64,000 nucleotides of DNA, taken from the NCBI RefSeq assembly GCF_036588685.1, contig NC_086379.1, forward strand, positions 58,032,001 through 58,096,000, written 5' to 3'. The stretch is from Mytilus trossulus (taxonomy: Eukaryota). This document shows, in pieces, positions 11,127 to 53,401 of this stretch (its first letter is position 1; each line of letters opens with the position of its first letter). Below the pieces are notes generated by a model. It was given only the letters and a program-made list of their open reading frames with translations. It did not search any database and was not told where the DNA came from. The translations under genes and the position numbers were made by a program.

Positions 11127-12626
11127 TCATTCTTTATAAAACTGATAAAACATTATAAAGCATTCAAAATGATAGAACATAACAAACGGAACCCAGAAAT
11201 GCTTAAATTTCAGCCAAGTATTACTGTTAAAAACTGGTTGAGTATTGTAAGCATGGTAAGGTACAGAAATAAATGTATACGAAAACCAAGTGTTGAAATT
11301 GACAAAACACATCACAAGAAAAATGTTTCTGATGGATAATACAGAATTAGAACTACTGAACTTCCGATATTGCTTCATCTGTAGGATAAAAGTGGTCTGT
11401 AAAATAGTGACAATAACTCTAACAACGGTATTCAGATGAATTCTGATGTCGTGAAACTGCGGCCGATTACGGCTGCTGAGACTTTCCAGAATGTAATAAC
11501 CACACGTAGCAAGAGATGTTGAAAGGATTATAAAATGTTGAATGTTGATTATTTTCCGTGGCCTTTCCTTTGGTTGTAGTTCTCCAGCTAATGCATGAAA
11601 ACACTTGATTGTTAGTGGTATCCGCAAAATGTTTCCGACAAGATAGTATGTATTCGGACCACCAGCTTGATTATACTGTGGAATGTACATTAAAACACAC
11701 TGAATTATGATGAAGGATAAACAAAACAATATACCAAGTCCGACTATGCACTTCGACTTCCTATTCATATGCCTGTTACGAACTGTTATATGTCCCGATA
11801 AAAGTTGGAAATGTTCTCCATTTTCCTGAGAAAATGAGGCAGAATCTAATAAATTAATTGTGTCAAGTGGCACTTTATGCTTTGGCCACATGTGAGAGAT
11901 GAATATCAAACTTAACAGACAATATTCTAGCAAAACTGGATCCAGGAATGGTTTAAGTATCTGTTCTGCTTTGTACAGAGTCGTTGCGTTGTTACATAGG
12001 TGTCCAGATTTATTTAGAATGTCATTTTTCTCCTCAAAGTACAAGTCTACATTTTTATGTGTCCACAAAGAGATATTTGCAACAAACAAAAACATCAGTA
12101 TATAATAGAAACATTTAATATTTGCAAATCGGAATCGTGAGAAATAAACAATGAATATGGTTTGTCCTAGATCGAAGAGCCAAGTTATTATATAGTAGAA
12201 TGCTTTCTGTGATAACGACTCACGTATATTACATTGAATATGAAGAGATAATTTCATTGCCTGTGATACGATATTTCCGAAACAAAAGAGCCACAGAAAC
12301 GCTAATTTCAGTTTGTGTGTAACTTGTCGTCTATGAAAAACCTTCCAATCGCTTTTTAAGTGAACTAGTAAGCTACAAGCGATCAAGAAACATATGGCAA
12401 GAGAGAGCACTCCAACAATTAACCATCTAGAATGTTTGGTTGGAAATATCAACATCACTTCAAGAACCGCTATAACTAGGGTCGTTAATAAGACAAGTCC
12501 GGATATACTTGCATCATGAACCGAGAATCCGCCATTTTCCCGCTTAGTCACTAGTCCTGCTGTAAAAGGCATTACCAATGCAGCATGTAAAATCCTTCGT
12601 AGCATATCTGGTGTCGTTTTATACAT
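11127..12626 (-). CDS. Otopetrin-like proton channel paralog 1 (499 aa, single coding exon)
   Basis: About 12 TM segments; motifs QTIFI, ANISLW, PFLDPVLLEYCL, QTTFILQ, VNFNTW, PFVMFYHFEC. Splice acceptor TTTTCTAG ends 4 nt before the ATG. Confidence 0.9.
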   Translation of the reverse strand: MYKTTPDMLRRILHAALVMPFTAGLVTKRENGGFSVHDASISGLVLLTTLVIAVLEVMLIFPTKHSRWLIVGVLSLAICFLIACSLLVHLKSDWKVFHRRQVTHKLKLAFLWLFCFGNIVSQAMKLSLHIQCNIRESLSQKAFYYIITWLFDLGQTIFIVYFSRFRFANIKCFYYILMFLFVANISLWTHKNVDLYFEEKNDILNKSGHLCNNATTLYKAEQILKPFLDPVLLEYCLLSLIFISHMWPKHKVPLDTINLLDSASFSQENGEHFQLLSGHITVRNRHMNRKSKCIVGLGILFCLSFIIIQCVLMYIPQYNQAGGPNTYYLVGNILRIPLTIKCFHALAGELQPKERPRKIINIQHFIILSTSLATCGYYILESLSSRNRPQFHDIRIHLNTVVRVIVTILQTTFILQMKQYRKFSSSNSVLSIRNIFLVMCFVNFNTWFSYTFISVPYHAYNTQPVFNSNTWLKFKHFWVPFVMFYHFECFIMFYQFYKE

Positions 12627-13585
12627 GTATCTAGAAAATCAATCATTCAATTCACTATAATTTGCTTCTCTAACTTCCGTAAACACATTTAATAAATTAT
12701 TTCGGTTTTTTTTCTTCAATTAAATTATTGTGAACTTTACATTGCATATTGTTGCACAGTAAATTAAACTTTCTCCCGCAGCATTTTTATTCTGATGCGA
12801 GTCTGTTAATCGAAACCGAGAATAACTATAGCCGCCAGAGAAAATTAGATGTGGATATGAAGAGGCATATAAGTACTTCCGTGGTTCGAATTATAGTATT
12901 TGAACAACAATTAAACCAATTATATTGAAAGAAGTTATTTATTTTCATTTCCTTATTTGAATGTTTCAAAAGCAAATTGTTTTATACTCACTTTCTGTAA
13001 AATGAAACTAGTTTTAATCTTGTATTTCGAATAAATCTCATAAACAACAAAGTTTAAAAGAATGGTTTCCTCGTCACGTTTTCATACAACCTACTTATAA
13101 TGCGAAGGGTATGAGTTCTCCGCTTATGTACAATATTCGAAAGTAATCTGCTATAGGATTTAAACTCACATGAGTCTTTACTAGATAATGTACAGCGAAA
13201 ACCAGCAATAACGTGAAGGATTAGCTTCAAAATGTATTCTTTAAATACCCTTTAAAACACGATTATTATCTGTTTTAAAAAAGATGCTTGATGAAAATTC
13301 ATTCAGGACTGATGGTCTTTTTAAATGTTTTTTTTTTTTTATAAGTAATGAAAATTCGTTATCTAAACTGATTTAGGAACGTATAGAAAATTTAGCGGAA
13401 AGTTCAAACTTAAAATATTTTAAAAACTTTACTATCATAATAGAAATAAGTAGCAGCACGCTAGCTTTTAAACGTGGTAGATAAGATAAAACACCTTCAA
13501 TATGTACACAACTCAATAACTTTGGAATTCTGATATTGTTCCTAGTTAATGACAAAATTGACTTTTATAGTGAAAGAGACAACAT

Positions 13586-14030
13586 TAACATGTATATGTA
13601 CCTGGCCACGTCCACTTGTATGTTTTGTCTATCTAGTGAGTTAAGCCTTTTTCAACTGATTTTTATAGTTCGTTCTTACGTTGTACCGTTATACCACTGT
13701 CCCAGGCTAGGGGTAGGGTTGGGATCCTGGTAACATGTTTAACCCCGCCACATTATTTATGTATGTGCCTGTCCCAAGTCAGGAGCCTGTAATTCAGTGG
13801 TTGTCGTTTGTTTATGTGTTACATATTTGTTTTTCGTTCATTTTTTTACATAAATAAGGCCGTCAGTTTTCTCGTTTGAATTGTTTTACATTGTCTTATC
13901 GGGGCCTTTTATAGCTGACTATGTTTTATGGGCTTTGCTCATTGTTGAAGGCCGTACGGTGACTATAGTTGTTTATGTTTGTGTCATTTTGGTCTTTTGT
14001 GGAATCATACCACATCTTCTTTTTTATATA
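13586..14030 (+). repeat. Longer copy of the abundant interspersed repeat
   Basis: 3' ~290 bp nearly identical to 4303-4612. Confidence 0.85.
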
Positions 14031-17000
14031 CTCATTAACTGTGTTTTTACATGTATGATTTTATATGGAAAACATTTTCCCTTTGAATAACAAACATATG
14101 AATGAACAAATCGTAGAGGTAAGCATTTACTCTATTTCTTCTGCTTTTTATTACTGGTCTTAATATAATAATCAAAACATTGTTTAAATAAAAATAAACG
14201 ATTTGAAATAAAAAGGAAAACAAGCATTCTGAGTGTATTGCATACATGCATTATAATGCCACTACCGGCTATAACGTTAATATTGAGTGCGTGTTTCCTG
14301 ATATTGAACAAGCAGTAAGTTTTCACCTGTAAGACAGGTGATTTTTATATTATAGCAAAGTTGACCTCAGATGAATTTGACGATTGTATGTTCATTTTGG
14401 TCATGTAGTTCGCAAGTGTTTAAGCTGTTATACGATGATGACTGATGTACCCGTATTTTGACCATTTTATTTATTGTGTCTATTTATTTAACGCATCAAT
14501 GTAAATATAACGGAATTTGATGAGACTGTCATTAAAGTGAGAGGGTTAGCGCTATAGAACCAGGTTTAATCCACCATTTTCTACATTTGAAAATGCCTGT
14601 TTCAAGTCAGGAAAATGACAGTTCTTGTCCATTCGTTTTTGATGCGTTTTGTTATTTGATTTTGCACTGTGATTATGGACTTTCCGAATTGATTTTCCTC
14701 TAAGTTCAGTATTTTTGTGAATTTACTTTATACATCACTGGCTTTCAATGTTTGGATTGAGCGTTCCTGATGAAGGATAATCCAGCAAAGCTCTTCGGAC
14801 TCATGAAAGTAATATTGTTGTTTTCATTTTTTTTAGATTGGGTCAGACAATTTATCAAAAGATGCGGATATTATTATAAATTTAAGGTTTTAAAGCGATT
14901 GTTTATTTTCAGTGACTAATATTCCTATAAAAATCGCTCAACAATACAAAACACACAATTAATCTGTATCTTATGATACTATACTAAAAAAACGTTAACC
15001 ATTGATTTAGGTAAAACAACAGAAAAGCGCAGAGAACTGCATTTCATCGAATTTTATATGTCAAGGTAGCGAACCTCTAGAAAATAATTACTCAAACGGC
15101 AATAATCACTCAAACAGGTCAAAACTCAAAGATGATCAGAAAATTCCAATAATAGGAATATGTTAGATCGTTTGATGAAAAAAAATGTGGGGAAAATTAT
15201 ATGTTTAAGCAATTGTCTATAGTTAAGAACCAAATCGTCCACAATTGTTTAAATTCTTTAACTTATTGACAATATTCATGAAAAGCAACATACAAATATT
15301 TGTAATATCGAGAGGATTTTTCTTCCGACGTTTGCATTTGCGCTAATATGCTCCTGGTGCTAGATTTTCTCGTTGCATTGAAGACCTATTGATGGCCTTT
15401 GTCTGCGGGTTGTTGTTTGTTTGACACATTCCCCATTTCATTCTCAATTTTAATTCACTTGCACCGATCTGCGTTTTTCTATCACATATATAATAATCAT
15501 CTTTTCGGCTAGCACATCTTAGGATAAGATTAGTTTGTGTCACAAGTTCAGTATTGATAGTTTTTTTCTTCATTTTTGCCAAATGGAATCTTTGACCAAC
15601 TATCTGAATCAGTATAATTGGGATCTAGACGAAAAATACAATCACTCTCTAAAGAAATCTGATATCTTTAAAAAAAAAAATGTTATCTTTGTTTGGCTTT
15701 ACTTCTTGTTCTTTTTGGGGTTTATTAGCTTTTAAACGTTGTTTGGATATTTAAAACGTTTGGTCTTGAGCAACACAAAAGAGAAACTAGTTGTCAAAAT
15801 GCTTATCTGGTGCAGTAACATTGGTACCGTAAATGTTATTGCAATCTTGAAAAATGTTTTTTTTCCTTTTTGTACAATGTATTCAGGTCTTACATTTCCA
15901 TAGGTATTGCGCTATATGCCTTCTGTTGATTACCTTCCCCTCCCGAAATATCCGATAACAAAACTTACCGATATTTCAGTATGCTCTTAAGGACCTAGCG
16001 CTTTTCTCTCTTTCCCTTGATTAAATAAATTTTAAAGTTGTTAACACAAAGCAATAAAACAATAAAATATTTCCCTATCTTTCAATGAGTTTTCTTCATT
16101 TTCACTTTAACAATACATATGTTTCCTCATTATAGCATTAGTTACTTTGTCATTATAATAAAACTGTGTACTTATTATTTTATTTCTAACACGAGGAAAT
16201 TCAGAAAGTATTATTTTTCTTAAATCTTTAATTGTCCTTACATAAATGATTTAACATTTTTAATTAAATTTATGCTGTTAGACAAGACGAAAGTCTCACC
16301 ATGTGTTACATAAAAATAGGAAGATGTGGTATGAGTGCCAATGAGACAACTCTCCATCCAAGTCACAGCTTATAAAAGTAAACCATTATAGGTCAAGATA
16401 CGGTCTTCAACACGGAGCCTAGACTCACACCGAACAGCAAGCAACAAAATGTCCCAAATCTTACTATTGGAAAACATTCAAACGGTAAAACCAACGTTCT
16501 AATCTATTTATAAAAAAAAGAGCCACTCTTTAAAGAGTTATGAGAGTAAACAATTTTGCTTAAATTATAATACAAATACAAGTCACGTTTAAAATACATT
16601 TTCGCTTTCTTAAAATGCACCAAAATTCTTTTTACTTGATACATAAAAAATATTTCGCGTCTGAAAAAAAAATAAAAAAAATATAATAAAAATAATATCA
16701 GGACAATTCGTTCCTTTTATTTCGCGCTAGAATACAAAAATGGAGATGTGATATAAATGCCAATGAGACAACTATTCACCATAGTTCAAATGAGGCTAAT
16801 GGAAGCAACTAAAGACACAATACGACCTTCAACTATGAGAAAAACCTATACCGTATACTCTGCTATAAAAGACCCCAACATGAATAAGATAAAACAATTC
16901 AATTGAGAAAAATATTAGCCTGAGAAATCAACATACGAAAAACAAATATTTAAGACGCGAACCAACGACAACAACTGAAATACAAGGATCCTGAGTTTCG

Positions 17001-17984
17001 ACATGCACATTAAGAATGTGGCGAGGGTAAACACGTCTGTAAGCGCTCAACAATCCCCTAACATGCCAATGGGACTGTGGTGTAATAACAGCACAAAATG
17101 AGTATGACCGTTCTCGTGTTGTGCTGTAATTACACCAAACTATAAAAATCAGTTGATTAGATCAGTAAAAAGAAAAACATCCAACAAAAAACAGATAGGA
17201 CGCAGAAGGGTATATATGCATTCCTCGTCTCTAATAACAAAAAGACACTTTATACAGATTTTATAATACTCGCAGTTACGGACAGCTAATTTAAATCAAA
17301 TGAAAACTAATTAAAATCATAAATATAAGACTAAAATATGACTCAGTACGCATCAAAGTTCGATTACCTTGAGAAATAATGTGTAGGGGCTTTGTAATGT
17401 TTAGTTTTACGGTCAAGGATTGCGTATTGCCTATTTTATGTTTTTTTGAAGATTCAATAAAATGTTTCCGGTTAATTGAACCAAAAAAATATAAACAAAA
17501 TTCGTCGAGTTTTAATATAAATAGTAATCAGAATTTTTGTCCAAATATAGCGTTTTTATTTTATTTATTTTTCATATCTGACCAAAATATTACGATTTAT
17601 TGGTCCATATTTCAATTGGAACATATTCTAGTTGCTCACCTGACATGGTATATACCTTGTATTTCTATCAATAATGGTGTTGATTATCCTTTATTTTACA
17701 TAAATGACATTACATGTTGGATACAAGTAAATAATACAGAAACCTTGCCAAATAGCTGGTTTTATAGTTAGCTGAATTAGAGACAATAAAACTTTAATTG
17801 CACAGTTAAAGTGCAGCGCCGATCTGCATTTCATTTGCGCCGATTTTTTACAGGTAAATTACAGGTGAAATGACATAAGAAGATGTGGTATGAGATAACC
17901 TTCCATCCCAGTTATGTTATTAAAGAATTCTTCCGTTAGACAGTTGTTCATATGTTATGAATTGTCAATTATAAAATGTATATA

Positions 17985-18150
17985 GAATCATATTCAAAAC
18001 AGTGTGGTCCTGGCCATTGATTGACGACCTAAATTATCCCATAGTGAGCAATGATCGTTACAGACAAACGTTCACCTAATCTGTCCCAGTCAATGGGATA
18101 CTTTAGGTCGTCAATCAATGGCCAGGACCACACTGTTTTAAAAATGATTC
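17985..18150. mobile_element. 166-bp hairpin MITE with TA duplication
   Basis: About 58-bp arms (GAATCA...CAGTGTGGTCCTGGCCATTGATTGACGACCTAAA.TATCCCAT and its reverse complement, 3 mismatches), flanked by TA on both sides. Confidence 0.8.
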
Positions 18151-18793
18151 TAACTGTTGTCTCCTGCTTAAAATCAAGAAGTAAAAACACTTTGTTGATA
18201 CTAAAATGACGAATTAAAAATATATGTACAGCATTCATATCCATAAAAACGGAATACATTAAAATCATAAATCTGTTCTTGCCGAGCAATGTATAGGCAA
18301 CACATCTAATATATTCCTTTCTTATGATTTCGTCTCTTCTAGATTTGGCTTAATTGTCGATAACGAAGGTCATCTTTTTTTTTTGTCTGGCAAACGTACT
18401 GGTTGGAGCATTTCTAGAGTTCGCATTTTCTCACAAGGAAGCTATTAAACCAAGAGTTCCAAATGGTGAAGTTGAAATCATTCCTTGGTTAATTTTATCG
18501 ACGCCATCACAAATTGGTTGACCGTTATAGAATGTGTACTTGTACTTTGTCTAAGAATGTATGACATTTGTCATCAGAGGGAGCGGAGCGTCAGACAATG
18601 TCAAACGTGAAGCAGTCATCGATTTCATTTAGGGAAAGGAATGGTAACCCGAAACATTGGGACAGCCATTTACCAATTGCAATGTCACTTGATTTGTCTT
18701 TATACTCTTTGCCTAGCCAATGTAAAACTATGAACTTACCTGTAACTTACCTGTAAATCCAATTAGGAAAAAATATAAAATCGGCGCATATGA

Positions 18794-20054
18794 AACTAGA
18801 GGCTCTAAAGGGCCCATGTCGCTCACTTTGGTCTATTTGAATTTTAAACAAAGGACGCAGATGGATTCATGCCAAATTGTGTTTTGATGATTGTGATGTG
18901 TTTGTACATCTTACTTTACTGAACATTCTTGCAATCTAATTAAAATATGTTATTCTTGCTGCTTACAATTATCTCTATCTATAATGAACTTAGCCCAGTA
19001 GTTGCAGTAGAACATTTTAGTAAACATTTACAAATTTTATGAAAATTGTTAAAAATTGACTATTAAGGACAATAACTCCTAAAGGGGTCAATTTTGTTTG
19101 ACCCCCCAAGGAGTTATTGTCCTTTACAGTTAATGTTTAACAATTTTCATAAAATTTGTAAATGTTTACTAAAATTTTGGTCATTTTGACTTATTTTAAG
19201 GTCTTACTTTGCTGTACATTAGTGCTGTTTACAGTTTATCTCTATCTATAACAATATTCAAAATAATAACAAACAAGAGGCTCTAAAGAGCTTGTGTCGC
19301 TCATCTTGGTATATGTGAATATTAAACAAAAGAAGCAGATAGATTCATGACAAAATTTAGGTTTGGTGATGGTGATGTGTTTGTACATCTTACTTTACTG
19401 AACATTCTTGCTGCTTACAATTATCTCTATCTATAATGAACTTGGCCGAGTAGTTTCAGTGGAAAATATTAGTAAACATTTACAAATTTTGTGAAAATTG
19501 TTAAAAATTGACTATAAAGGATAATAACTCCTTAGGGTGTCAATTGACCATTTCAGTCATGTGAACTTATTTGTAAATCTTACTTTTCTGAACATTATTG
19601 CTGTTTACAGGTTAATTCTATCTATAATAATATTCAAGATAATAACCAGAAACAGCAAAATTTCTTTAAAATTACCAATTCAGGGGCATCAACCCAACAA
19701 CGGGTTGTCCGATGTATCTGAAAATTTCAGGGCAGATAGATCTTGACCTGATGAAAAATATTACCCCCTGTCAGATTTTCTCTAAATGCTTTGGTTTTCG
19801 CGTTCCAGGCCAAAAACTGCATTTTACCCCATGTTCTTCTTTTAGCCGTGGCGGCCATCTTGGCTGATTGGCCGGGTCACGCCACATATTTTTTAAACTA
19901 AATACCCCAATGATGAGTGTGGCCAAGTTTGGTTTAATTTGGTCAAGCAGTTTCAGAGGAGAAGATTTTGGTAAAAGTTAACGACGGACGACAGACGACG
20001 GACGCAAAGTGATGAGAAAAGCTCACTTGGCCCTTTGGGTAAAGTGAGCTAAAA
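18794..20054 (-). mobile_element. Helentron-associated non-autonomous element (HINE/pearl-like), two tandem or nested copies
   Basis: A(C/T)AGAGGCTCTAAAG...GTCGCTCA ends at ~18795 and ~19274, a (GACG) microsatellite at ~19981-20004, and an AGCTCAC...GTGAGCT hairpin at ~20020-20050 next to an A/T run. Confidence 0.7.
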
Positions 20055-20852
20055 ATGAAATCGGCGCAAATGAAAGAATGAAAATTTTCAAAATCGGCGC
20101 AAATGTCATACGCCCACATGTACAATCATTAGAGTTTATTTAGTGACAGATCCGTGCGTATTGCGATCACCGGATTTTTACCAGAGGGTCACAAAAAGGT
20201 CACTTTGAATACGAAAAATATATATAACAATTATAAAAAATGATAACTTCTTCAAATTGTAAACATATTTAAGGATTTTCTTCACAAAACAATATTTGTA
20301 CATAAGTTTAATAATGACAACTATCCATTTTGTTATAAAAAAAATATATGCATATTTTTTTTTAAATTGATGTTTCATATGACTTTATAATTACTAGTTT
20401 TAACATAATAGGATGTAAAACTAAATTGCCTTTTAAAGAAATAAAATATTATATATTTTTTTTTAATTTGCAATACATCAACAATGTCTCCTTTATTGAT
20501 AGAAGAGATTACATTTTGTTCATTTTGGCCTCTGTTCCAGGTGATCCAACCACTTTCAACATAGTTTTGACTTTAATATTTCCTTGCTTGTTAAGTTCCG
20601 CATATTGGCAGGTGATTTAAAAAAAAAGAAATGACTTGATTAAAAAGCTTCCGGTTGTATGATTATTTTTTTAATACAATACGTGTGTAAAATTCTTTTA
20701 GTTGTTAGATTATAATTTTAAAAATTAGTTTGAATTAACAAATGAGTTAAGAAAGTTTATTTTCCTGTGGTATGGATTATATTTTTCGGTACAGAACAAA
20801 AATAATAACTTGCTAGATTTCTTTTTACATTACCATCATTAGGAGGGAAAGT

Positions 20853-22493
20853 ATGGATTTCTTTAAAGAAGTATTTCGAGCTGCATTTGTTTTACCGTTT
20901 TCGGCCGGTAATGTAGACGAGGAGAATGGTTCACATGACGGCAGCCTGGCAGGACTTTTACTGATGACTACTTCAATAGCTATCCTCTCTGAGATACTGA
21001 TGATTGGGTTTTCAACTAACGAGACTATTTCGTCTAAATTCAGCGTTGGACTAGCAGTCTTAACGTTTCTATCTGCTCTAGCAATTGTAATTTGCGTGTG
21101 TATCAGTTTATACGTGTCATCAAGAGGGAACCGTGTGTTTCGTATTTTACCATGGAATACATGTAATACAATAAGACTAAGGTTTTTGTGGATTTTTTGT
21201 TTCAGCTGTATTATTTCGAGAACATTGGACATGACCTTTTATATTGATTGTCTAACTAACTCATTGACATTGAAATTTACAGTAGACACTATAGTATATG
21301 CTCTGGTCTGTATAGTATTCTACGTTGTACAAACTGCATTTATAACATATTTTTCGCATTCTCGATTCACCAGCCACCTTGGTGTTTATTATGGATTACT
21401 TATTATATTCCTAACAAATATTTCAGTTATATGTCATGCCTTGGCTTTTACTTTTAAACCTAAGGAGATTGACATGGTTGACATTTTTAATTTGACGACA
21501 AATACCCAACATACTTCGAGTAATACATCTTGCTACAAGTCAAGTATGTACGCGGTATTGATGAAGATTGATCCTTTCTTGTTACCGGCATTTTGTGAAT
21601 ATTCGCTTGTTTCCATAACGTTTATTATGAATATGTGGCCAAAATTTGGATTAAAAAATGACGAATTTGTGCTTGATGATATTTCACTTGACGTAAACAG
21701 AGAAACGTCAGAGTCGACGAGCAATTTAAGAGGATCGATAAATGGTAGGTCAGATTCGACAAATAACAGGCGGAATAATGAAAACATTCCTTTATTAGAC
21801 AACCCTAAAAGCACAACAAACTACAGACAACACCGTATAAGAAGATTTATAAGCATATCTGTTCCTATTCTTCTTAATTTGCCATCAGTTATATTATACT
21901 GTTTACACATTTCAAAAGTTCCATCTGTACAATTAGGCTTAACAATATCAATTGCTGTAGGAGCTACTATTGAGCTGCTTTTGTACGTGAAATGCTTTTA
22001 CTCTCTTCAGACGCAATGTAAACCATTGAAACAAAAGGAATGTTCATCTCTTGATTCTGGTGATTACATTCTAATTGCAAGTGCGGTTGCAGCAATATCA
22101 TATTACACGGTAAAACTGATGTCAAATATTTACAATGTTAGCTCTGAAGCTACATATCCTATAGGTTTTTATAAACTTGTTATTGATATCATCGCAGCTT
22201 ATTTTCAAACGGTTTTCATTTTACAAATGAAAAAATATGCGAAGGCCTTTAATATTTCCTCATGGACGTCGGTTGAATATACATGTTTATTAATGTCTTT
22301 TATGAATTTATGTTCATGGGCGGCTGATACTCTAATAGTTTCACAATATGTTTACCAAAATGACGCACCATATCATTTCTTTGGGTCATCTGACTGGACA
22401 GAAATCTTTGGATTTTTATACCCATTTGTAATCTTTTACAGATTCAATGCTTTTGTTTCCTTTTATGGTTTGTATGATAGATTGAAACATTAA
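20853..22493 (+). CDS. Otopetrin-like proton channel paralog 2 (546 aa, single coding exon; most divergent and closest to canonical motifs)
   Basis: HDGSLAG, LRFLWIF, VQTAFI, TNIS, PFLLPAFCEYSL, FQTVFILQ, MNLCSW, FFGSSDW, YPFVIFYRFNA. Acceptor CATTAG ends at 20842. Confidence 0.92.
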   Translation: MDFFKEVFRAAFVLPFSAGNVDEENGSHDGSLAGLLLMTTSIAILSEILMIGFSTNETISSKFSVGLAVLTFLSALAIVICVCISLYVSSRGNRVFRILPWNTCNTIRLRFLWIFCFSCIISRTLDMTFYIDCLTNSLTLKFTVDTIVYALVCIVFYVVQTAFITYFSHSRFTSHLGVYYGLLIIFLTNISVICHALAFTFKPKEIDMVDIFNLTTNTQHTSSNTSCYKSSMYAVLMKIDPFLLPAFCEYSLVSITFIMNMWPKFGLKNDEFVLDDISLDVNRETSESTSNLRGSINGRSDSTNNRRNNENIPLLDNPKSTTNYRQHRIRRFISISVPILLNLPSVILYCLHISKVPSVQLGLTISIAVGATIELLLYVKCFYSLQTQCKPLKQKECSSLDSGDYILIASAVAAISYYTVKLMSNIYNVSSEATYPIGFYKLVIDIIAAYFQTVFILQMKKYAKAFNISSWTSVEYTCLLMSFMNLCSWAADTLIVSQYVYQNDAPYHFFGSSDWTEIFGFLYPFVIFYRFNAFVSFYGLYDRLKH

Positions 22494-24227
22494 TTCGTCT
22501 TCAATAGATGGCGGCACTATTTGATCACATACATACTTGGTTTTATCAACGTTTGAAAAACCATGAATTAACAATGTCATACATTAAAAGGATAAATACC
22601 AGGAATGACCAAAAAAAATCGCTTTCATGTAGGACTTTGTACTGAATCTTAACATGAGGGTTATTATATTTCATATTCACTTTCTGTCTATGCGAAGAAG
22701 AGTTTATAATTTCCGAGGTTCTGTTTTTAAATTTCACAAAGTCAAGGGCAAGACCTTAAACACAAACATTAGGTCCGAACTGAAAAATCTAATAAACAAT
22801 AATTGTCTTATCATACGTTGGTACAGTACTTCATCAAAAGAATGACGCTTTACTTACATTGTTTACTTTAATTATAGCGACATTTTATGACTAGGATATA
22901 TTAAAAAAACTCTTATAGTATTTTGTATAGTAATTGCTGGTGGAGATATAATAACTGGATGTCCATCGGGAGCACAGTAATTTTTATATGCGTTATATAG
23001 TGAAAACATGTTTACCCAATATCAAGATTTTCATACATCACGCTTATTGTCTTTGTTATTAATGAAAATATATAATCATAATAAATACTTACTCCCTTTT
23101 CATTTTCCAGTGTTGATTTTTTTCTTATTTAAACCTCATTGATAGTAACAAGACTGAATATATTGGCTAAACTAAAAACAAAAAACTGGAATAAAATTGA
23201 GAAAGGAAATGAGATTATGTCTAAAGAAACAACAACTCGACCAAAGAGTAGACAATAGCCGAGGGCCACCAATGGGGCTTCAACGCAGCGAAAAGGTCCC
23301 ACTGCCGAAGGTGGTCCTCGGCTACCTCCTAAGTAAAAGTGTTTACTCGTTAAGTGAAAATGTACGTCACACTAAAGTCCAAAACATATAAATGAACTAA
23401 ACTTAAAACAAAACCCGACAAGACTAACAAAGGCCAGAGGCTCCTGACTTGGAACAATTGCATACATGCGGCGGGGTTAAACATGTTTTGTGAGATCTAA
23501 ACTTCCCCTTTACCTCTGTCCAACGTGAAAAAAAGAATCACATGAACCAATACGCACAAAAAAGTCCGTTTAAAAGCATCCGATCCGATGTCAGAATAGA
23601 TAACGAAAGACACTAAGCAAAATGACAATGATCCATAAATCTACAAAGGACTACTAGCAGTTCCTGACATGCCAAATAGTAAATGTCGATAGTCAAATCA
23701 TCTCTATTGTCAACTATCATGTTTGTGTAGGGAGTATCGAGCGTTCAGCAATATATCGACGAACGATGTATGACATAAAGACAATATTTGTATATTTCAA
23801 TTACTAGTGTTCAACATTTGCAATTAAAGGATACAAATATTATCAATGAAACTTTGAGTTATAGTCTAAAAATTAAAAGTGGAGGTATGCTTTAACATAT
23901 TTCTGTTCTAGACACTGTATCATATCTAAATGATAAAAGGTTGAAAATTTAACTGATAACGTTATTGCTCATATGTATATACGGAGAACTCAAATCGACG
24001 TCTGTTGCTGATCTTGTAGCATGCTGTTTCAGTGGCATATTTTTTGTTCCGGCTGTTTACAATACACAGTATTTACTTTCTATCGGTTATTAATTTCTAA
24101 TATTTTCATAATTTGTTTCACAGAGTTTCTTACGAGCTGAAAGTCATATAGATCACTAAAACTAATTGTTGCATCGTTGTAAATTTTGGGATTTTTTTGG
24201 TATTTGTGATGCGAGTGACTTTAAATA

Positions 24228-24500
24228 TGTCAGGAATCTGATGTACAGTAGTTGTCGTTCGTTTATGTAATATATACGTGTTTCTCGTTTCTCGTTTTGT
24301 TTATATAGATTAGACCGTTGGTTTTCCCGTTTGAATGGTTTTACACTAGTAATTTTGGGGCCCTTTATAGCTTGTTGTTCGGTGTGAGCCAAGGCTCTGT
24401 GTAGAAGGCCGTACTTTAACCTATAATGGTTTACTTTTTAAATTGTTATTTGGATGGAGAGTTGTCTCATTGGCACTCACACCACATCTTCCTATATCTA
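24228..24500 (+). repeat. Interspersed repeat, uninterrupted form of the host of the 32027 retrozyme insertion
   Basis: CTTTATAGCTTGTTGTTCGGTGTGAGCCAAGGCTCTGTGTAGAAGGCCGTAC...CACCACATCTTCCTATATCTA. Confidence 0.8.
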
Positions 24501-27500
24501 TAGCCAAATATAATGTCTATTCTAATCAAATGCAGCAAGTTTGCTACGTTTAACTTTGAATTGTCATTAAAGTAATTAAGACGAACAATCATGATTAAAG
24601 AACCGTAGTGATCGTCTTTTATTGTATTATTGTATTTTGGTTCAAATTTTAGTTAGTGACAACTGCATATTAAGGTTTTGTTATGAAACAAAAACTTGTG
24701 TTAAATTGTTCAAAATGTATGAATTAGGCAACATATGTAAAAAGATTGATATATAGTCTTTGTATGAATAATTTGTGGGATAAACAGTGGTTGTTGAATG
24801 TAGACAGCTCTAGTTACCTTTGATAAGACAGTGTTTGTTTGATCAAGCTAACTAATATTTTTAGCTTCTTCAGCAAAGTGTAGATTATATAGGTATGCGG
24901 TAACAAATGTAGTTTTGCCATTTTATTTACAGAAATAAATTCCTGTACTTTTTCGTAAATGTATAACAATGATTCGTTTGTCTTCCCATAACATTTTTAT
25001 TGAAACTGGGCGTTATGTTGGTACTTATAGAAAGGTAAGAAAAAAATTGTGATTAAGGAGTAATAGAGGATGAATTTTATTTCATCCTACAATGTAGCAG
25101 ATATACTGATTTGCGAAAATAATATATAAAAAATATTACTGGTCTAGGCCATCAATTTTTAAGTTAATAGAATCATTATCTGATGAAAACACAAAACAGT
25201 TTTGTGACATAGGAATGTATATACATTTCTCTTCTAAATAAAAAAAAAACAGTTATAAAAGATATTGTGTATTGATGAAACTTCTGACGTCACTTATTGT
25301 TAATTATAGATCATTATACATATTGTTAACATTGTTTGTAATATGCCATATGTATACACTGTACAGGTACTCAATTACTGACGAGCCGTCAAGTTAACAA
25401 AGAATTTGAATTTATTGTAACTTTAAAAGAAGAATTTAAATTTTAGAAAATGTTCTTCAACTAATTAAGTATTTGATTTGGTCTGTTGATTATTTTGATT
25501 CGAACGCCGTTGGTGAGACGAAACGAGCGTCTGCAGTAGCACATAAGTAGCCCGGTATATTTTATATTAGAGTTTTTACACCCTTTTTGTTAAACTTTAA
25601 TACACGATTTTCAATAATATTATTTATATGTTAATGAAACGAAAAATCTTTTTGATGAAATATTTACAGAAATCATACCAATTTCACAGGTTAACCAAAA
25701 AGGTAATGTACTGTCGCCACAAACTTTTAAAAATAAAGTATCAAAACTATCAATATTTATCTTAAGAGTGTATCCAAAAAGGTAAATCATCAGTTTTACG
25801 AATGTGTCTGGTTGTTATCAATTTTTCAAAATAGTGTACAAAACCTAAAACGTAAGTAAATTAAGTAATTCAGTAAATAGTGAGTTAAAGCATAAAACTG
25901 TAAGCAAACGATCAGTGCAAAATATGCTGTAACGGAAACTATTTAAAGTACTTCATTTGTATTTAAACTCGTATTCAAAAGGTCATGGTAACACATTTAA
26001 TTCAATCGAATGAATTTCAATTACAAGGAAGTATTTCAAATAAACCCATAAATTTAACTCCAATATACGCAATAAGGTAAGAAAATTTAAGGCATAGATA
26101 TTAAAGTGCTTATTTTTCATATTATTCCAATTGTTTTATCATTATTATGAAACTGACTTTCAATTTGGCAATACTAATGCCGCCATATGAAAAGAGATTC
26201 AGATTCATTTAAAATTTCATAGTACATGACACCTTTTGAGAATGCATATAAATGATACCATAAGTATATCATGTATAAAATGCATAACATAAATAACATG
26301 ATTTTTTTTAGTGCGCACGGCATATTTGCTTTGGAAAAACTTTCATCTAGCACATATGATTGGATAACCAAAATATTATCATTTTAGGGCATTATAACCG
26401 AAAGGTCAACTTTAACAAGTAAACGTTTCGCTTCAGAGAGTTGTAACATAAGTTCCAACACAATTTGAAATAAAAGCCGATTATTTTTCTCTTTTGACAA
26501 AGTAATTACTTGGTCTATTATGTATTATTATAACGAAATACGAAACAAGAATATAGAGAATATAGGGGGAGCTTAGCTATGGCTCAACTTGTTCATTTTT
26601 ACATTCCATGGCTAAAGCTGTATCCCATTTTCTGAATACCTGTACCATGTCAGGAAAATAGAAGTTGTTTGTTATTGTTCCGTTAGTTGCTTCCTTTTTA
26701 ATTTACCTTCGAGTTCTGTATTGTTTGTTATATTTTTTTTTCTAAAAACCTATGCTCCTCTCAATTATTTAGGAACATGAACAAAGATTAGCTGAGAGAA
26801 AAATATCTTTGTTATATTTTTGTTGTCTTAGGTATTTGTTAATAACCCTTCACATTGTGTTTGTCGTCTCTTAAGAATTTATAAAAATTTGATTTCAAGT
26901 CAGAATCATTAATCAACATTACAATAAATAAGGAAACTCGTATAGTGTTTTTCACATGTTACATAAAAATGAAGTTAATATTCTTTAATCTATTTTATGC
27001 TCATTTTAAAGCATGGAGAGGTAAATTACTAAATCAAATGAAATAACGTAGTCGTTTGTACGAAAAGATAAAAGATAAATTCACACACATTTCAAATAAA
27101 AGGAAAGTGTCAAATAAAAATATTAAAATTCAGAATAAAAATGGAGAATGTGTCAAATAGACAACAAACCGACCAAATAGTAAACAGCAGCCGAAATCCT
27201 CAACACAGCGAGGAAATCCTGCACCCGAATAGGGGCTTCAGCTGACCCCTAAATAAAAGGTGATCTAGTTCAGTGAACATGGACGTCATAGTTGACTAAA
27301 AAAAACTATCTTGAAAAATTACTATAAAACCGAACTTATCATCATGAGGTTTATGTTACTATCTCTGTCGGAGACGGACCCAGGGAAACAGGTGACCTAG
27401 ACTACCTTTTACGAAACTGGACATAAGAATAATTCATTGAATTATACATGTTTCACTCCTTATCTTGTTTAGTATGCCTTCCCTCTTTTTCTAATTCTTG

Positions 27501-28714
27501 GATCTACATCTGACTGCTAAAATTTTGTTTTTGCCAGTTCACCGTGGTAAATCAAATATTGGACACAACATGACACTATTCCAAGAATAAACGAGCCACC
27601 ATACTATTTGATAAATCGGTATCGTGATCAATATCTTATATTAATTCAAACTGTCATTCCAATTTATTTATTCTATAAAAAAAATGGTATAAATAGTTCT
27701 TGGATATCCTTACTTTTAAATTTTTAATTAGAAATTTAGAAACAAAATTTACCGTTTAAGTCATATCAATACCGACGAATGAATGATTTGCGGAAGGTTA
27801 ACTTATCCAACATGCAGGTGTCTATCCAACATGCCAAGCTCCATGTCGTAGCGGGGCATTAACATTGGAAATTAATTCAACGTTCATTTCTCCAAATAAC
27901 AAAACGTATTTTAAAAGAAGAGCAAAATATACCAGGGAGACAGTCAAATCATAGATCGAAAATAAACTTACATAGCAATAGCTGAAAAAGAAAACGACAA
28001 ACAGACACATTATAGTACACAATACAAAACATAGAAAACTAAAGACTAAGCAATACGAACCCCACCAAAACTTGAGGCGATACAAGATATGACGTATACA
28101 ACTGCTTAGAACACGCATATACAAATTTATATGTTAAATTTGTCGTATTCAGATGATGAAAAAAGTTATACTTTATTATTACTAATGGTTAAAACGAACC
28201 GAGAAAAAAATGATAGAAACTTTACAAAGGTAACAGTAGTATTACGCTGTTCAAAGTCAGAAATCAATTGAGAGAAAAAAAATTCGGGTTACAAACTATA
28301 AAATCGAGGGAAACATTACAACTGTGAGGAAAAAACAACGAAACAACAGAACACTGAATGCAAAAAAAAACAAAACAACAACCGACAAAACATTAATTGT
28401 TATACTGTATTTAATTGAAGTAGTTGTTGCATGTCATATTCTAATTCTTTTCGTTATGTTGAGAATTTGATGTCATGCATATTCAAGGAGAAAAACAAGT
28501 AATAAGAAATTTAAAACATGAGTCACTCTACTATAGTTCTCGGCTTACCTGTTTTCTCATTGTTTAGGCGGAATGTATATTTAAAAATTGTGAGCTTGAT
28601 GTTTGCTGACTTGTAATTGTAAAAACATAATACATATGTGGGAAGATTATTCAATTAATAAAAATTCAGGGGTAGCTTTACTTCAAGTCATTTTATTTTA
28701 TTTGCAGCTAAATA

Positions 28715-40380: not shown

Positions 40381-41877
40381 ATGAATCAGCTATGCAATAT
40401 TTTGCGTGCTACAATCATCGTTCCGTTTTCTGCTGGTTTGATAAAGGAACGACGGAATGGAGGATTTTCGATACATGACGGCAGTATTGCAGGGATAGTT
40501 TTACTGACCACAGCTATGATCATCATATTTGAAACAATAGTTGTACTACCAGTGCATCAGTCTAGATTGTTGATGATAGGACTTGCAGGTCTGGCGTTGA
40601 TCTGTCTAGTGATGTGCAGTGTTGCAGCTCGGTGCCGTTCTAATTGGGTCGAAATAAAAACTGTAAAACCTAGCGATCAAATGAAACTGAAGTTTCTGTG
40701 GTTGTTTTGTATCGGGAATATTATATATCAAGCAATGCAACTAGCTATGCATCTCGTTTGCAAGATATACGACTTCCAAGTCACACTATTTTGGGCGTTC
40801 ACCTGGGCATTTCAGTTATTCCAAACCGTTTTCATTCACTATTTTTCTAGATATGAATTTGCCAATGTTTTGTGTTTGTATTACGGTTTATTGGTGTTAT
40901 TTGTGACAAATATTTCAATGTGGTCACAACAAACTTTCTATACATACAGAATTAGTCATGATATAAATATTAGCTATCTCATCAATAGCACGGTCTCAAA
41001 CTGTTTATACGATGATGGACTTTCTGAGGCAGTAGTATATTTGACTCCGTATCTGCAACCAGTATTACTAGAATACTCTCTTCTAAGTTTGATATTTCTT
41101 TCCGAAATGTGGCCAAAAAAGAAGGTTGAACTTGAAAAACTCAACATTTATCTTGCAAGAGATGCAGATGATGAAAATCACACATTATTGGTACAAAATG
41201 AAGACCTTGACAGTGAACAACATCCACTTCTGCCGCGCTGTAGTGTCTGGCATAAAAATTCAGTACGTGTCCTGGTAATAGGTTTATTGCATAACTTTTC
41301 ATTTCTGCTATTACAATGTATTTACATTTATGGACCGCGGGAAAAAATGACAGATTACAGGACATATTCTAACATTCTCTTCTTTTGTGCTAACTTTGTT
41401 CGAACGCCACTTATAATCAAGTGTTTCTATGCATTGAACGGACAAATATGGCCAAAACAGGAAACTAATAGTGGGATGAGCCTAGATCAGTTTGTTATAA
41501 TAACAAGTTCTTTTGCAACTTGTGGATATTATATTTCAGATTGTTACAGTGTTGTATATCCAAATTCAAAACCATTAGAAGTCCTGTTTCGAATCAATGC
41601 TGTCCTCCGTATTTTTGCAACACTATTTCAAACTTTATTCATTTTGCAAATGAAACACTACAAAAAGATAGGAAACCAAAAGCCTTTTTGTTCAGTTCAA
41701 AATACTTTTTTGTTTGTGTCCTTGGTAAATCTTGGAATATGGATGTCCTACACGTTTGTTAATCCCAGATACCGTTTGATACAATCTAGTTTTGTATTGG
41801 AAAGTTTTTGGTTTCCATTTGTAATTTTCTATCATTTTGAATGTTTCGTCGCATTTTACAAGTTTTTTCGAGCGTAA
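40381..41877 (+). CDS. Otopetrin-like proton channel paralog 4 (498 aa), recent duplicate of paralog 3
   Basis: Colinear with 28715-30214, roughly four of five residues identical by eye. Acceptor TTTTACAG ends at 40372. Confidence 0.92.
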   Translation: MNQLCNILRATIIVPFSAGLIKERRNGGFSIHDGSIAGIVLLTTAMIIIFETIVVLPVHQSRLLMIGLAGLALICLVMCSVAARCRSNWVEIKTVKPSDQMKLKFLWLFCIGNIIYQAMQLAMHLVCKIYDFQVTLFWAFTWAFQLFQTVFIHYFSRYEFANVLCLYYGLLVLFVTNISMWSQQTFYTYRISHDINISYLINSTVSNCLYDDGLSEAVVYLTPYLQPVLLEYSLLSLIFLSEMWPKKKVELEKLNIYLARDADDENHTLLVQNEDLDSEQHPLLPRCSVWHKNSVRVLVIGLLHNFSFLLLQCIYIYGPREKMTDYRTYSNILFFCANFVRTPLIIKCFYALNGQIWPKQETNSGMSLDQFVIITSSFATCGYYISDCYSVVYPNSKPLEVLFRINAVLRIFATLFQTLFILQMKHYKKIGNQKPFCSVQNTFLFVSLVNLGIWMSYTFVNPRYRLIQSSFVLESFWFPFVIFYHFECFVAFYKFFRA

Positions 41878-44800: not shown

Positions 44801-45139
44801 GATAAGTGTTTAATGCATGATCAAAGTGTCTAAACATGGTTTAATTAGAAAAGGAAGTGAAGATTAATGATCCGGTTCAATCCACTTACATTTACCATGG
44901 TGCTATTTTGGTAATGATAAAGAACGCTATTAAACTGTATATAACTATACATGGCTGCCAAATGAGCTTGTCTGAAAAAAATAGGGACGAAAGATACCAG
45001 AGGGACAGTCCAACTCATTAGTCGAAAATAAACTGACAACGCCATGGCTAAAAAATAAAAAGACAAACAGACAAATAATAATTTGGATGGAGAGTTGTCT
45101 CTTTGGCACTAACTCCACATCTTCCTATATCTAAATAAT

Positions 45140-45560
45140 AGTACAGAAGACACAACATAGAAAACTAAAGATTAAGCAACACGAATCCTACCAAAAATGG
45201 GGGTGATTCCGGTTGCTCCGGAAGAGTAAGCAGATACTGCTCCACATGTACCACCCGTCGTGTTGTTCATTTTATTACAAATCCGATAAATAGTATATTT
45301 CGGAAGGTCACATAAAAAGTAAAAAGGGAACATAAGGAAAATATCAGATATCATCTGTGAAATGGTTATTCCATAACGGTCAACCAACTCTTGATGTCGT
45401 TACGAAGAGATTATTTAAACGTCACCATTTGGAACTCTTGGTTTAATAGCTTTCTTGTGAGCAACAATCCTTTATCAAGGAAATCATGATAGGAAACACA
45501 AGCCCCGGAATATCAATTGGGAGATATATACTCCGTATGCAGGCGCTGCTGGAATGTTAG
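45140..45560 (-). mobile_element. Degenerate Penelope-like 3' end/tail
   Basis: Similar to 5150-5530 and 6050-6230 (AACATTCCAGCAGCGCCTGCATACGGAGTATATATCTCCCAATTGATA = NIPAAPAYGVYISQLI). Confidence 0.65.
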
Positions 45561-47050
45561 TTTAAACATATTTTATTGTCCAAAAACATTGACAATAGGA
45601 TTAGACACAAGTTTTGCAACTCAGAACGTCTTCTCCATTACATACAAATAATAAATAACCGAACAAAAATGAAATACATAATAATAACATCTTAAACAAT
45701 ATTAATATGAAGACATGAAACTAACGAGAATTTAAACGACATGACTCATCTATTTCTAAAAGTCGAGTTGACCGTAAATTTGTATGATAGACCTACCTGG
45801 TAGGTTGTATTAATCTTGGAATAAATATTCCCTCAAAAGGTAAGTGTTTACTGTATTTTAAACAAATAAGTTAAATTGTTGTTGTCAACTGATGAATTAT
45901 ATACTAAAATCAAATTGATGATCCATGTCTTAGGAAAAAATGAACAATTTCATTCGAAGTCAACAAAAAGTAATAACATTGTTATTGGTATATATTTAAC
46001 CATAATGTCTATAAACTATGAAAAGCTATTGGTCTCTTTAATATAATTCTGCACTTTTATAAAAATTAGCCTGTTTATGTTAAAAGTAAACAAAGCATTG
46101 CCGTACATTAAATTTTCAAAGTCGATAGGTATATTTTCTTTTCTAAGTTCAAAAAATAAGGTATTCCTTTGCACTGTATAATTTTTACACGAGAGGAAAT
46201 AATGTTGGGCATTTTCGTATAAATAACCACATTGACACATTGCGTTAGTTTTAATATTAGCGTGATACAGATCCATGTTCAGGGCACTGCATTTGTTCCT
46301 TAATCTTGCGTGTAAAACATTTAAATATCTATCGCCAATATTGAAATATGTAGGGGGTGATTTGTTTTTATAATATTTCTGTTTAATTTTCAATTTAAAC
46401 ATATTTAAAGAAAGTTCATTTCTAACACTTAAATCAAGCGAATTCCACAGTTTGATACTAGATGGAATAAATGATTCCTGATAAAGAGACAGTCTGCTAG
46501 AGGTTTGGTATATATTTTGACTGCTTCGTAGATTGTAATTGTTTGTTTCTGCAACTGTAGGGGGTATTAAATCTAATAAATATTCTGGGGCATCCTCTTT
46601 CATAATTTTGTAAAATAAAGTTAATTTCTTAACTTCCCGTCTAATCCTTAATGTTTCCCATCCCGTCTCTAAATAAAGTGATTGAGTGCTAGCATAGCCT
46701 GTTAGACCAGTGACAATACGTGCTGCTTCCAGTTGTAATTTTTCTAATCTTTCAGAATTCAACTGTCCGCAATTATCCCAAACTTCAGAAGAATATTCTA
46801 GAACAGGCCTTATAAAAGTTAAATATATTTTTTCTAAATATTCCCTTTTTAGTCGGAATTTCAAACGTCGAAGAACATTTAATTGTTTTGATACCTTTTC
46901 TATTAAAGAATCGACATGCTTGGCCCACTTACAATCACTGCTAAAAAATATGCCTAAATGTTTATGACTAGTAACTGTATCTACCTGAACTCCGCCAAAA
47001 TTAAAAATCAAGTTATTTTTTAGGAATGTTGATATGGAAAGTAACATTTA
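45561..47050 (-). mobile_element. 5'-truncated CR1/L2-group LINE (RT C-terminus plus 3' UTR)
   Basis: ORF 46016-47047: HKHLGIFFSSDCKWAKHV, YLTFIRPVLEYSSEVWDNC, LEKLQLEAARIVTG, C-terminal CQCG...HYFLSC. 3' end AATAAAATATGTTTAAAC at ~45561-45578. Confidence 0.88.
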
Positions 47051-47931
47051 TTCTCAATATTCAATATTCACCATTTCAGAAACTTAAACCTTCCGGATAT
47101 AAAAGCATACACCAAAAGAATCCGATTGGTGAGCAAAAAAAGATATAAAAAAATAAAATAACAAAAATACAAAACTCCGAGGAAAATTCAAAAACGGAGA
47201 GTTCATAATCAAATGGCAAAATCAAAAGCTTAAACACAGCAAACGAATGGATATCAACTGTCATATTCCTGGATTGATACAGGCTGTTTGTATATAGAAA
47301 ATAGGGGATTAAACCCGGTTTTATAGCTAGCTAAATCTCTGACTTGTATAGCAGTCACATAACGTTCCTTTATATTGACAACGATGTGTGAACAAAACAA
47401 ACACGGGACATAATTCCAATCACGTCACGTTCCTCATTTTGGTTTATAAAACAATACATGTTAAAACTATTAAAATTCATTTTGTATCTAAATCAGTTAA
47501 TTTTAACTATACGTTGTCTAACACATTAGTTTAATTTGAAATTATTTCGAATTATTTCACAACCTGTCAATGCCATGGCCATAATAAGATAATAGATACA
47601 TTGATGTTGTGAAACGCATATTTTGATTATTTTACTCAAAACGATGCATATATGTTAATGAAAGAAAAGAGCAGGAAGTTTTTCTTGTAAGAATATTGCA
47701 TTTTGATTAGTGTTATCAGGTAAGAATGGTTGGTATTCTTGATAAATACCAAATGACTGATATCCGCTCATTTGAACATATCTGATTACTGTCCTATAAT
47801 TTTTTTAAACTACTGTGACTATCTATTTCAGGGGGAAATGATTTGAAATATTGACACCGTTCAATGGTCATCTCGAAACTAAATAATCGTTTAATAAGAT
47901 AAACTTCCATATTACGACGACAGCATCAAAC

Positions 47932-49399
47932 ATGAGACAAAAATTGAAGAAAATCCTGCATGCTGCATTTATAATGCCATGGACAACTGGTTTAATTAAA
48001 GAATATCGTAACGGTGGTTTTTCAAAACATGACGGCAGCATTGCTGGAGTAGTTATTTTGACAACAATAATCATCATGATATTCGAACTTATGGTTTTCT
48101 TCCCTAAAACGACTTCTCGAATAGTCATGACTGTTTTGTTGATCATCGCAATATTCACATTGATATCCATGAGCCTTTCAGCTTGTAAGAATACACACTG
48201 GACAGTACCAAGAATGTCAAAAGGCAGTCACAGTTTGAAATTGAAATTCCTTTGGCTATTTTGTGTAGCCAATATTACCTTTGAAGTAGTGAAATTTGCA
48301 ATTTATAGCAAATGTGACCAACTTCCAGATGTTCTACTGTTTTATATTTCAACTTGGATATTTCAAATTTTGCAAACATTCTTCCTTCATTACTTTTCCA
48401 AATTCACATTCAATAATATACTGTGCCTCTATTATGGATTTCTTGTTCTGGTTGTTACAAATTTTTCACTGTGGACACATCGAACTATGTTTACATATTA
48501 TGAAGCCAAATCATTTTTAAACATCAGTGACATCAGTGGAAATGTATGTAATGATACAAAATCTTTTGTTCCGATGGAGAAGTTTAAACCATTTTTAGAT
48601 CCAGTGTCTTTAGAGTATTGTCTTTTGTGTGTAATACTTCTATCTGAGATGTGGCCGAGAGCAAAGTATCCCGAACATCAAAGTCGACAACTACAAGAGT
48701 CCTCTTCAAAGGAAGAAACAGAAGAACATCAGTGGTTATTGCGTTGCAATAGCAATGTTCCGACTAGAACAGTTTGGAATAGAAAATCAATTATAGTTTT
48801 GTTTATTGGTGTCTTGTATATGATTGTATTTCTTGTTATACAGACATTATTTCTTAACATTGATCAACTGAGAAAAAATTACTTGCACGTAGCGTTCGTA
48901 TTTTATGTTTGTGGAAATTTCATTCGGATACCGCTTACCATAAAGTGTTTTTACGCATTTTCTGCACAACTCCGTCCTAAATCAAATGTTCAAACGGTCA
49001 CGGATATGAAACATGTAATTATCGTAGTTAGTTCAATGGCTACATGTGGATATATTATAGCAGAATGTGTAGAGAATCTACGCCACGGTGAAGTGAAAAT
49101 CATACTTAATGCCATTTTCCGTTATGCAAACGTCCTTTATTTTGCAAATGAAACAGTACAAACGAGTAGACAGAACAAACACTATAACGTCTATACAAAA
49201 TACATTTTTATTCATGTGCTGCATAAACTTCAGTTTTTGGTTTTCATACACCTTTATATCACCGCAGTATACTGTCAGATTGCATAGACACTTCTTTGGA
49301 ATTACCAGCTGGCTAAAAATTAAACATTTCTGGTTCCCTTTTATTATATTTTACCACTTCGAGTGTTTTATCTCATTTTATGACTTCTTTAGGACATGA
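47932..49399 (+). pseudogene. Otopetrin-like paralog 5, frameshifted (about 14-nt deletion near 49123-49126)
   Basis: Frame 1 matches paralogs up to NAIFR; a second frame continues QTSFILQMKQY...PFIIFYHFEC to TGA at 49399. Paralogs have 6 codons between R and QT; this copy has only TATG. Putative 5'UTR intron 47720-47831. Confidence 0.85.
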
Positions 49400-53229: not shown

Positions 53230-53401
53230 ATGTTCTGTATATTTGTGCTTGGCATTCTTATTCATGGAGCATTACCAGCAGCTCTTGATGATTATGTATA
53301 TCGGAATGACCCGTATTACAAGTTTGAGGAGATTGGGAAAGAGTCAGGGCCTGGATATACCATGTATATGATAAATATGACTTCACAAAAATGGAAAACA
53401 G
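53230..53401 (+). CDS. PqaA/AprA-like exon 1
   Basis: MFCIFVLG...ALDDYV...NMTSQKWKT, G|GTAAAA. Confidence 0.85.

Follow-up and report, generated by a model that had tools for sequence, protein, structure and literature searches.

A tandem array of divergent otopetrin genes with substitutions at the proposed proton-relay histidine in the mussel Mytilus trossulus

Organisation of the otopetrin array

The analysed window, a 64 kb stretch of the Mytilus trossulus genome, contains an array of otopetrin (OTOP) paralogs, which are called here copies 1 to 5 (c1–c5) in positional order. The whole stretch holds only eight stop-to-stop frames of at least 150 codons, five of which belong to these paralogs. 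Copies c1 (12605–11127, minus strand, 492 aa) and c2 (20853–22493, plus strand, 546 aa) are arranged head-to-head and are followed on the plus strand by c3 (28715–30214, 499 aa), c4 (40381–41877, 498 aa) and c5 (47932–49399). The first four copies are intact, while c5 is frameshifted. All paralog pairs matched each other well past chance (tblastn, E ≤ 1e-27). At the protein level, c3 and c4 are 81% identical, the identity between c1, the c3/c4 pair and c5 is 42–44%, and c2 is the most divergent copy, with 29–34% identity to the others (34% to c1, c3 and c4).

The lesion in c5 lies at about 49118–49122, where approximately 14 nt are missing relative to the intact counterparts (91–97% identical) from other mussels; the deletion may be fixed, confined to one allele or an error of the assembly. 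These counterparts follow c5 in one frame to 49122 and then resume in another at 49118; the final 90 codons of c5 are in a different frame, with the stop at 49399, and the frame as read loses the native sequence of transmembrane helices (TM) 10–12. A decayed relic resembling the C-terminal part of c5, with frameshifts and stops, is located at 51838–52049 (plus strand) and shows 79% DNA identity to 49151–49359. A search of the window with family proteins longer than 400 aa revealed no otopetrin relic other than this one. The preliminary description of the locus had listed five paralogs with one divergently oriented; their positions and the head-to-head orientation of c1 and c2 were reproduced, and the frameshift in c5 and the sixth, decayed unit had been overlooked.

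The ratio of nonsynonymous to synonymous substitution rates (dN/dS) between c3 and c4 was 0.14, the other pairs being saturated or undefined. This ratio indicates that c3 and c4 are under purifying selection and are maintained genes. That the copies are decaying, functionless duplicates is hardly credible. The frameshift in c5 and the adjoining relic agree with such a reading, but it is contradicted by the four frames that stay open over some 500 codons each, by counterparts of 83–97% identity across Mytilus, by the dN/dS value and by the RNA-type contigs described below, and the conservation data largely refute it already.

The N-terminal motif LRAxxxxPFSAG...NG..HDGSIAG, which had been described as shared by the paralogs, occurs in precisely this form in c3 and c4, and the other three copies (c1, c2 and c5) carry variants of it. 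It is located directly ahead of TM1 in the c3 and c2 models and is partly present in two outgroup rows of the tree described below, so it is not strictly exclusive to the clade.

Exon structure and transcription

In each copy, the coding sequence is a single exon that aligns over its whole length with full-length counterparts, in contrast to the gene adjoining the array, which has 13 coding exons. The single-exon structure assigned to the copies earlier is thus correct for the coding sequences, and c3 likely has in addition an intron in its 5′ untranslated region (UTR). Pyrimidine-rich AG acceptor sites are present 7 nt (c3) and 8 nt (c4) upstream of the ATG. The probable 3′ splice site of the c3 intron, a pyrimidine tract followed by AG, is located at 28688–28707 (plus strand), and the alignments of contigs from run X18 and run X19 end at the same position, 28706, with 49 and 27 extra unaligned letters, respectively. 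This pattern agrees with splicing in the 5′ UTR; the joint to an upstream exon is absent from the rows examined. In the case of c2, one contig continues unspliced from 20697, i.e., 156 nt ahead of the ATG.

The contigs were derived from four runs of related mussels (about 95% identity) and were aligned to positions 11000–30900; only run X19 is recorded as RNA, and the other three were taken to be RNA by guess. RNA-type contigs span long stretches of c1, c2 and c3, which suggests that the counterparts of these copies are transcribed, with no tissue or level implied. Read depth was dominated by repeats, and thus it was not used for ranking the genes.

An ancestor whose coding sequence was already free of introns likely gave rise to the array through tandem duplication, in a process in which copies continue to be gained and lost. 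An initial retroposition, followed by tandem duplication, would be a plausible source of such an ancestor.

Family identity and predicted fold

The Pfam Otopetrin family (PF03189, cut-off 27.8 bits) was matched by c2 with 81 bits (E 1e-22) and by c5 with 33 bits (E 5e-8); when scanned as single sequences, c1, c3 and c4 gave no Pfam match. Of the 30 otopetrin relatives that were aligned, 18 matched the same Pfam entry (E ≤ 0.001), and none matched a different one. The profile built from these 30 rows matched four sequences in the PDB, all of them OTOPs (E 4e-14 to 3e-6). Single-sequence phmmer searches of the PDB gave weak results, with the best E-values of 0.004 for c2 and 0.005 for the protein P0030.

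AlphaFold models were analysed for c3 and c2, with predicted local distance difference test (pLDDT) values of 72.6 and 75.8, respectively. In the Foldseek search with the c3 model, ranks 1–12 were all OTOPs. The VIA comparison retrieved all 12 solved OTOP entries with both models, at Z 26.0–33.5 for c3 (next fold 10.8) and Z 26.3–33.1 for c2 (next fold 11.7), and the root-mean-square deviation of the two models from the solved OTOPs was 2.6–5.1 Å over 333–415 residues. The ESM Atlas search retrieved otopetrin clusters, the best of which was mostly molluscan. A simple hydropathy scan indicated 8–11 segments per protein, and the count of twelve helices comes from the models. The prediction of a two-copy c3 complex had a score of 0.00 and did not use the alignment, and it is evidence neither for nor against a dimer.

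The profile matches and predicted structures firmly support the assignment of c1–c5 to the otopetrin family, and the twelve-helix double-barrel otopetrin fold is predicted to be kept in c3 and c2. The family identity proposed earlier is confirmed by the Pfam, profile and fold searches, which returned otopetrins only; the outcome named beforehand as refuting it, i.e., the lack of any otopetrin profile or structural match, did not occur.

As a separate observation, each six-helix barrel came closest, after the OTOPs, to the membrane domain at the N terminus of ABCC/SUR proteins (Z about 10–12), a middling value for helical bundles, which is treated here only as a lead.

Distribution in bivalves and phylogenetic position

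Among 28 close matches, 13 carried an organism name, and all 13 were from Mytilus. Every copy from the window has a counterpart of 94–97% identity in M. edulis or M. galloprovincialis (c1 is 94% identical to one M. edulis protein), and the M. californianus counterparts of c1, c3, c4 and c5 are 83–91% identical. The number of copies varies, with two c1-like genes in M. californianus and two c3-like units in one M. edulis model. These extra copies, together with the frameshifted c5 and the relic, bear out the proposed birth-and-death turnover.

Two M. edulis gene models join array units to other sequences. P0034 (CAG2231010.1, 1463 aa) chains c2 with the two c3-like units and is likely a gene-prediction artefact, yet it shows the extra copy. 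P0044 (CAG2231012.1) fuses c5 residues 1–387 to the second exon of the gene adjoining the array (matches at 47932–49092 and 54778–63858). It departs from c5 about 30 nt ahead of the frameshift site; a similar lesion may be present there, or the model is wrong.

The family also occurs beyond the window, as P0231 in M. trossulus and as P0106 and P0225 on the matching chromosomes of relatives, with 22–27% identity to the window copies. The profile search returned 1042 representatives (50% clustering, E ≤ 0.001), of which 115 reached 1e-30. Twenty of the 150 listed clusters were looked up, and the eight with names belonged to Mytilus, Ylistrum, Saccostrea, Crassostrea and Ostrea; a further search, in which seven of nine matches were named, added Magallana and Pinctada. 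A taxonomy check of four of the genera placed them in four orders of pteriomorph bivalves. The clade is thus wider than the mussels, and its range may be wider still, as 12 of the 20 clusters had no name.

For the alignment, 142 of 220 proteins were kept; those left out were fragments with fewer than 330 of the 503 profile positions, sequences almost identical to another row, models in which genes are fused, the frameshifted c5 and eight proteins of the neighbouring gene. The tree was inferred as an IQ-TREE quick tree from 60 of the 142 rows. Many of its end branches are long, its outgroup rows are unnamed, and vertebrate sequences are absent from it, as are canonical mollusc sequences with a name. 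The topology showed that 46 clade rows are separated from 14 canonical-like rows with a Shimodaira–Hasegawa-like approximate likelihood-ratio test (SH-aLRT) value of 98. The profile of 13 outgroup rows matches solved OTOPs with E 3e-67 to 6e-45. All 14 window or named Mytilus rows are grouped in one 26-row subclade (support 82), which contains none of the six named oyster, scallop and pearl-oyster rows. The named Mytilus proteins represent at least 13 distinct paralog lineages.

The possibility that c1–c5 are simple orthologs of canonical OTOPs is contradicted by the split described above, the outgroup being unnamed. The same split upholds the divergent subfamily postulated in the preliminary description. 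Its lineage-specific character has to be drawn more widely than the mussels, as the clade is named in four bivalve orders. Bivalve proteins automatically named "proton channel OtopLc-like" or "uncharacterized" (e.g., XP_071130025, XP_078335171, XP_062592229) belong to this clade by profile and tree. An oyster "OtopLc-like" gene listed among heart transcripts (PMC9939839) could not be placed in the clade.

Relay and constriction residues

According to the mechanism proposed for the studied OTOPs, the TM6 glutamate takes up a proton from the outside and passes it on to the TM12 histidine, from which it is released inward, and both relay residues are termed absolutely conserved (PMC11343839). The current of XtOTOP3 is abolished by Glu321Gln, His669Ala and His669Gln (PMC6483595), and E267 and H574 are likewise reported as required (PMC12549899).

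The TM6 glutamate is present in all five copies (c1 E227, c2 E249, c3 E232, and also c4 and c5), and a QNY constriction triad of the kind described for OTOPs (PMC6483595, bioRxiv 10.1101/542308) is found in each half of c1–c4 and of the intact counterparts of c5. The TM12 histidine is replaced in every copy, by glutamate in c1 (FYHFE, Glu481), c3 (Glu488), c4 and the out-of-frame tail of c5 (FYHFE), and by asparagine in c2 (FYRFN, Asn532). The register of TM12 is gapless: the profile "FYrFe" lies over FYRMH of mouse OTOP2, with His551 on the glutamate, and the spacing of Pro480, Phe484 and Glu488 in c3 equals that of Pro559, Phe563 and His567 in C. elegans OTOP8 (CeOTOP8). The C-terminal FYR box (PMC2268672) aligned without gaps and reads FYR in c2 and FYH in c1, c3, c4 and c5. 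The earlier reading of the copies as proton channels does not stand as given, because none of the five retains the TM12 histidine and proton-channel activity can therefore not be assumed.

The histidine is retained in 11 of 15 canonical-like rows, in 27 of 68 non-mussel clade rows and in one of 59 mussel-clade rows. Among the non-mussel rows (n = 68), its replacements include Gln (11), Thr (7), Ser (5), Phe (4), Leu, Ala and Ile (3 each). The named oyster and pearl-oyster rows in the tree all keep it (5/5), unlike the mussel clade, and the scallop row has Ser. Of the 59 mussel-clade rows, 54 have the TM6 glutamate, and so do 107 of the 127 clade rows overall. The clade-wide loss of the TM12 histidine, a residue regarded as essential, is the notable part and had gone unnoticed in the preliminary description; the array itself is an ordinary product of birth and death, already present in databases as unnamed gene models.

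The canonical TM9 aspartate pairs with the histidine. At its site, as judged by sequence alignment, c3 and c4 have Asp, c1 has Gln, c2 has Gly and the c5 counterparts have Lys. The loss in c1, c2 and c5 would be tolerable, because XtOTOP3 survives it: its TM9 Asp509 mutants are reported to show slower desensitisation only (PMC6483595). One residue past this site, c1 and c5 carry a histidine, and a proton acceptor moved there, in an otherwise canonical mechanism, was considered. TM9 and TM12 histidines co-occur in none of 124 rows (raw Fisher p 2e-4), but the kinship-corrected result is not significant (10 independent pairs, sign test p 0.5), and the same TM9 position is occupied by Asp in c2 and Gln in c3 and c4, which leaves this explanation very improbable.

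Functional interpretation

We tentatively favour the explanation that c1–c5 are still pH-dependent proton channels that work through an altered, Glu-to-Glu relay, although our confidence in it falls somewhat short of even. In c1, c3, c4 and the intact c5 alleles, a second glutamate would act as the proton acceptor; in c3, the transfer would run from Glu232 to Glu488. Such a change would move the pH range in which the channels work and would alter desensitisation. In c2, with asparagine at this site, a water-mediated route would be needed, or the protein would be a weak conductor, and c2 is a doubtful member. The motif preceding TM1 could serve as a regulatory element, judging from its position and by comparison with the self-inhibiting loop of CeOTOP8. 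The roles in shell formation, haemocytes or chemosensation proposed in the preliminary description are hypothetical. The proton-channel explanation is supported by the predicted fold, the triads and the TM6 glutamate, by the dN/dS value of c3 and c4, by the RNA-type contigs and by the mostly titratable replacements in the mussel clade, where the TM12 site is occupied by Glu in 31, Lys in 18, Arg in one and His in one of the 59 rows.

Several observations weigh against this explanation. The 59 rows cannot be counted as independent, near-identical orthologs being among them. The asparagine of c2 resembles the dead XtOTOP3 mutants His669Ala and His669Gln, and no His-to-Glu or His-to-Lys OTOP mutant was found in the accessible text of the mutagenesis work cited here. 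A salt bridge between E429 and R572 in zebrafish is reported to support Otop1 function (bioRxiv 10.1101/542308); the position of E429 is occupied by Val or Ala in c1–c4, and the arginine of the FYR box is His in c1, c3, c4 and c5. Finally, the frequent non-titratable TM12 residues outside the mussel clade suggest a relaxed need for the relay.

In the second explanation, the clade has been repurposed as a sensory-type repertoire on the otopetrin scaffold, passing other ions or sensing pH, ammonia, metals or solutes, with proton selectivity gone. The histidine occurs in just 28 of 127 clade rows, 12 other residues are found at its site, and the number of Mytilus paralog lineages is also in keeping with such a repertoire. 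Single coding exons, tandem arrays, fast divergence and turnover recall chemoreceptor families. Passage of anions through human OTOP3 at strongly acidic pH is reported (PMC13579931), which shows that the fold is not restricted to protons. On the other side, the TM6 glutamate and the triad residues are well conserved, and the only known role of the buried glutamate is proton transfer. Repurposing of this kind is a serious possibility that we nevertheless doubt. Its broad form, in which pteriomorph bivalves possess a large chemoreceptor-like otopetrin repertoire whose relay was repeatedly dismantled or rewired to give sensors or channels for other ions, pH ranges or seawater solutes, is conceivable, but we regard it as rather unlikely.

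It is improbable that the proteins without the histidine do not conduct and instead modulate canonical OTOPs or one another as subunits of mixed dimers, or that they have a structural or lipid-binding role. Such a role would fit the loss of an essential relay residue from a retained fold and the conserved motif ahead of TM1 at an equivalent position, and the solved OTOPs are dimers whose activity is described as depending on sliding between the subunits (PMC11343839). However, at least a dozen modulators maintained by purifying selection would be a large number, and the fixation of glutamate across the c1/c3/c4/c5 subclade suggests a chemical role for the site.

Neighbouring genes

The gene adjoining the array, annotated as "autocrine proliferation repressor protein A-like", extends over 53230–63858 (plus strand). 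An M. trossulus protein matches all 13 of its exons, seven of them at 100%, and the first exon gives a weak match to the Pfam family PhoPQ_related. Adjacent accession numbers of this gene and otopetrins in other Mytilus annotations suggest that the synteny is kept. Between c4 and c5, a 343-codon frame at 46016–47047 (minus strand) resembles the C-terminal part of a long interspersed nuclear element (LINE) reverse transcriptase; it gave no significant Pfam match. At the other end of the window, a RING-finger-like exon with a C3HC4 pattern recognised by eye is located at 3361–3585 (minus strand), and a hydrophobic frame of 232 codons lies downstream of it at 1142–1840 (minus strand); the two possibly form one membrane ubiquitin-ligase-like gene.

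Comparison with known otopetrins

Among the matches listed in searches of open-licence PMC papers and bioRxiv preprints, none described an expansion of otopetrins in bivalves or natural OTOPs without the histidine; subscription journals were outside the search, and alignments in supplements or figures might already show invertebrate OTOPs of this kind. The hand-over from glutamate to histidine is the current model of otopetrin conduction (PMC11343839), and a clade with the glutamate and the triads but no histidine provides a natural test of it. If the mussel proteins conduct protons, the histidine is dispensable; if they do not, the otopetrin fold has a second function. With either outcome, they are candidates for a part in sensing acid or in handling pH in bivalves that are farmed and exposed to acidification.

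The solved OTOPs are zebrafish Otop1 (6nf4), mouse OTOP2 (8ug6-8), chicken and Xenopus OTOP3 (6nf6, 6o84) and C. elegans OTOP8 (8ug4/5). The mussel copies have in common with them the double-barrel fold, as predicted by the models, the QNY triads and the patterns Pro-x3-Glu-Tyr in TM6 and Pro-x3-Phe-Tyr in TM12. They differ in the low identity to these proteins (12–18%), the change of the TM12 histidine to Glu or Asn, FYH in place of FYR in four copies, a TM9 aspartate limited to c3 and c4, the tandem expansion and their own N-terminal motif. Their single coding exon also contrasts with the at least six exons reported for vertebrate Otop2 (PMC3038909).

The self-inhibiting N-terminal loop of CeOTOP8 comprises residues 50–57, including Trp54, and is located ahead of TM1 (PMC11343839). 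The c2 model aligns from residue 2 onward with CeOTOP8 from residue 50 onward, as judged by the end points only and with a model confidence of 53–77 in this region; the likeness of the mussel motif to the loop is one of position only. Among marine calcifiers, the sea urchin otopetrin Otop2l is described as mediating acid efflux in calcifying cells (PMC13000164), and it offers a precedent for the role in shell formation that had been suggested for the mussel array.

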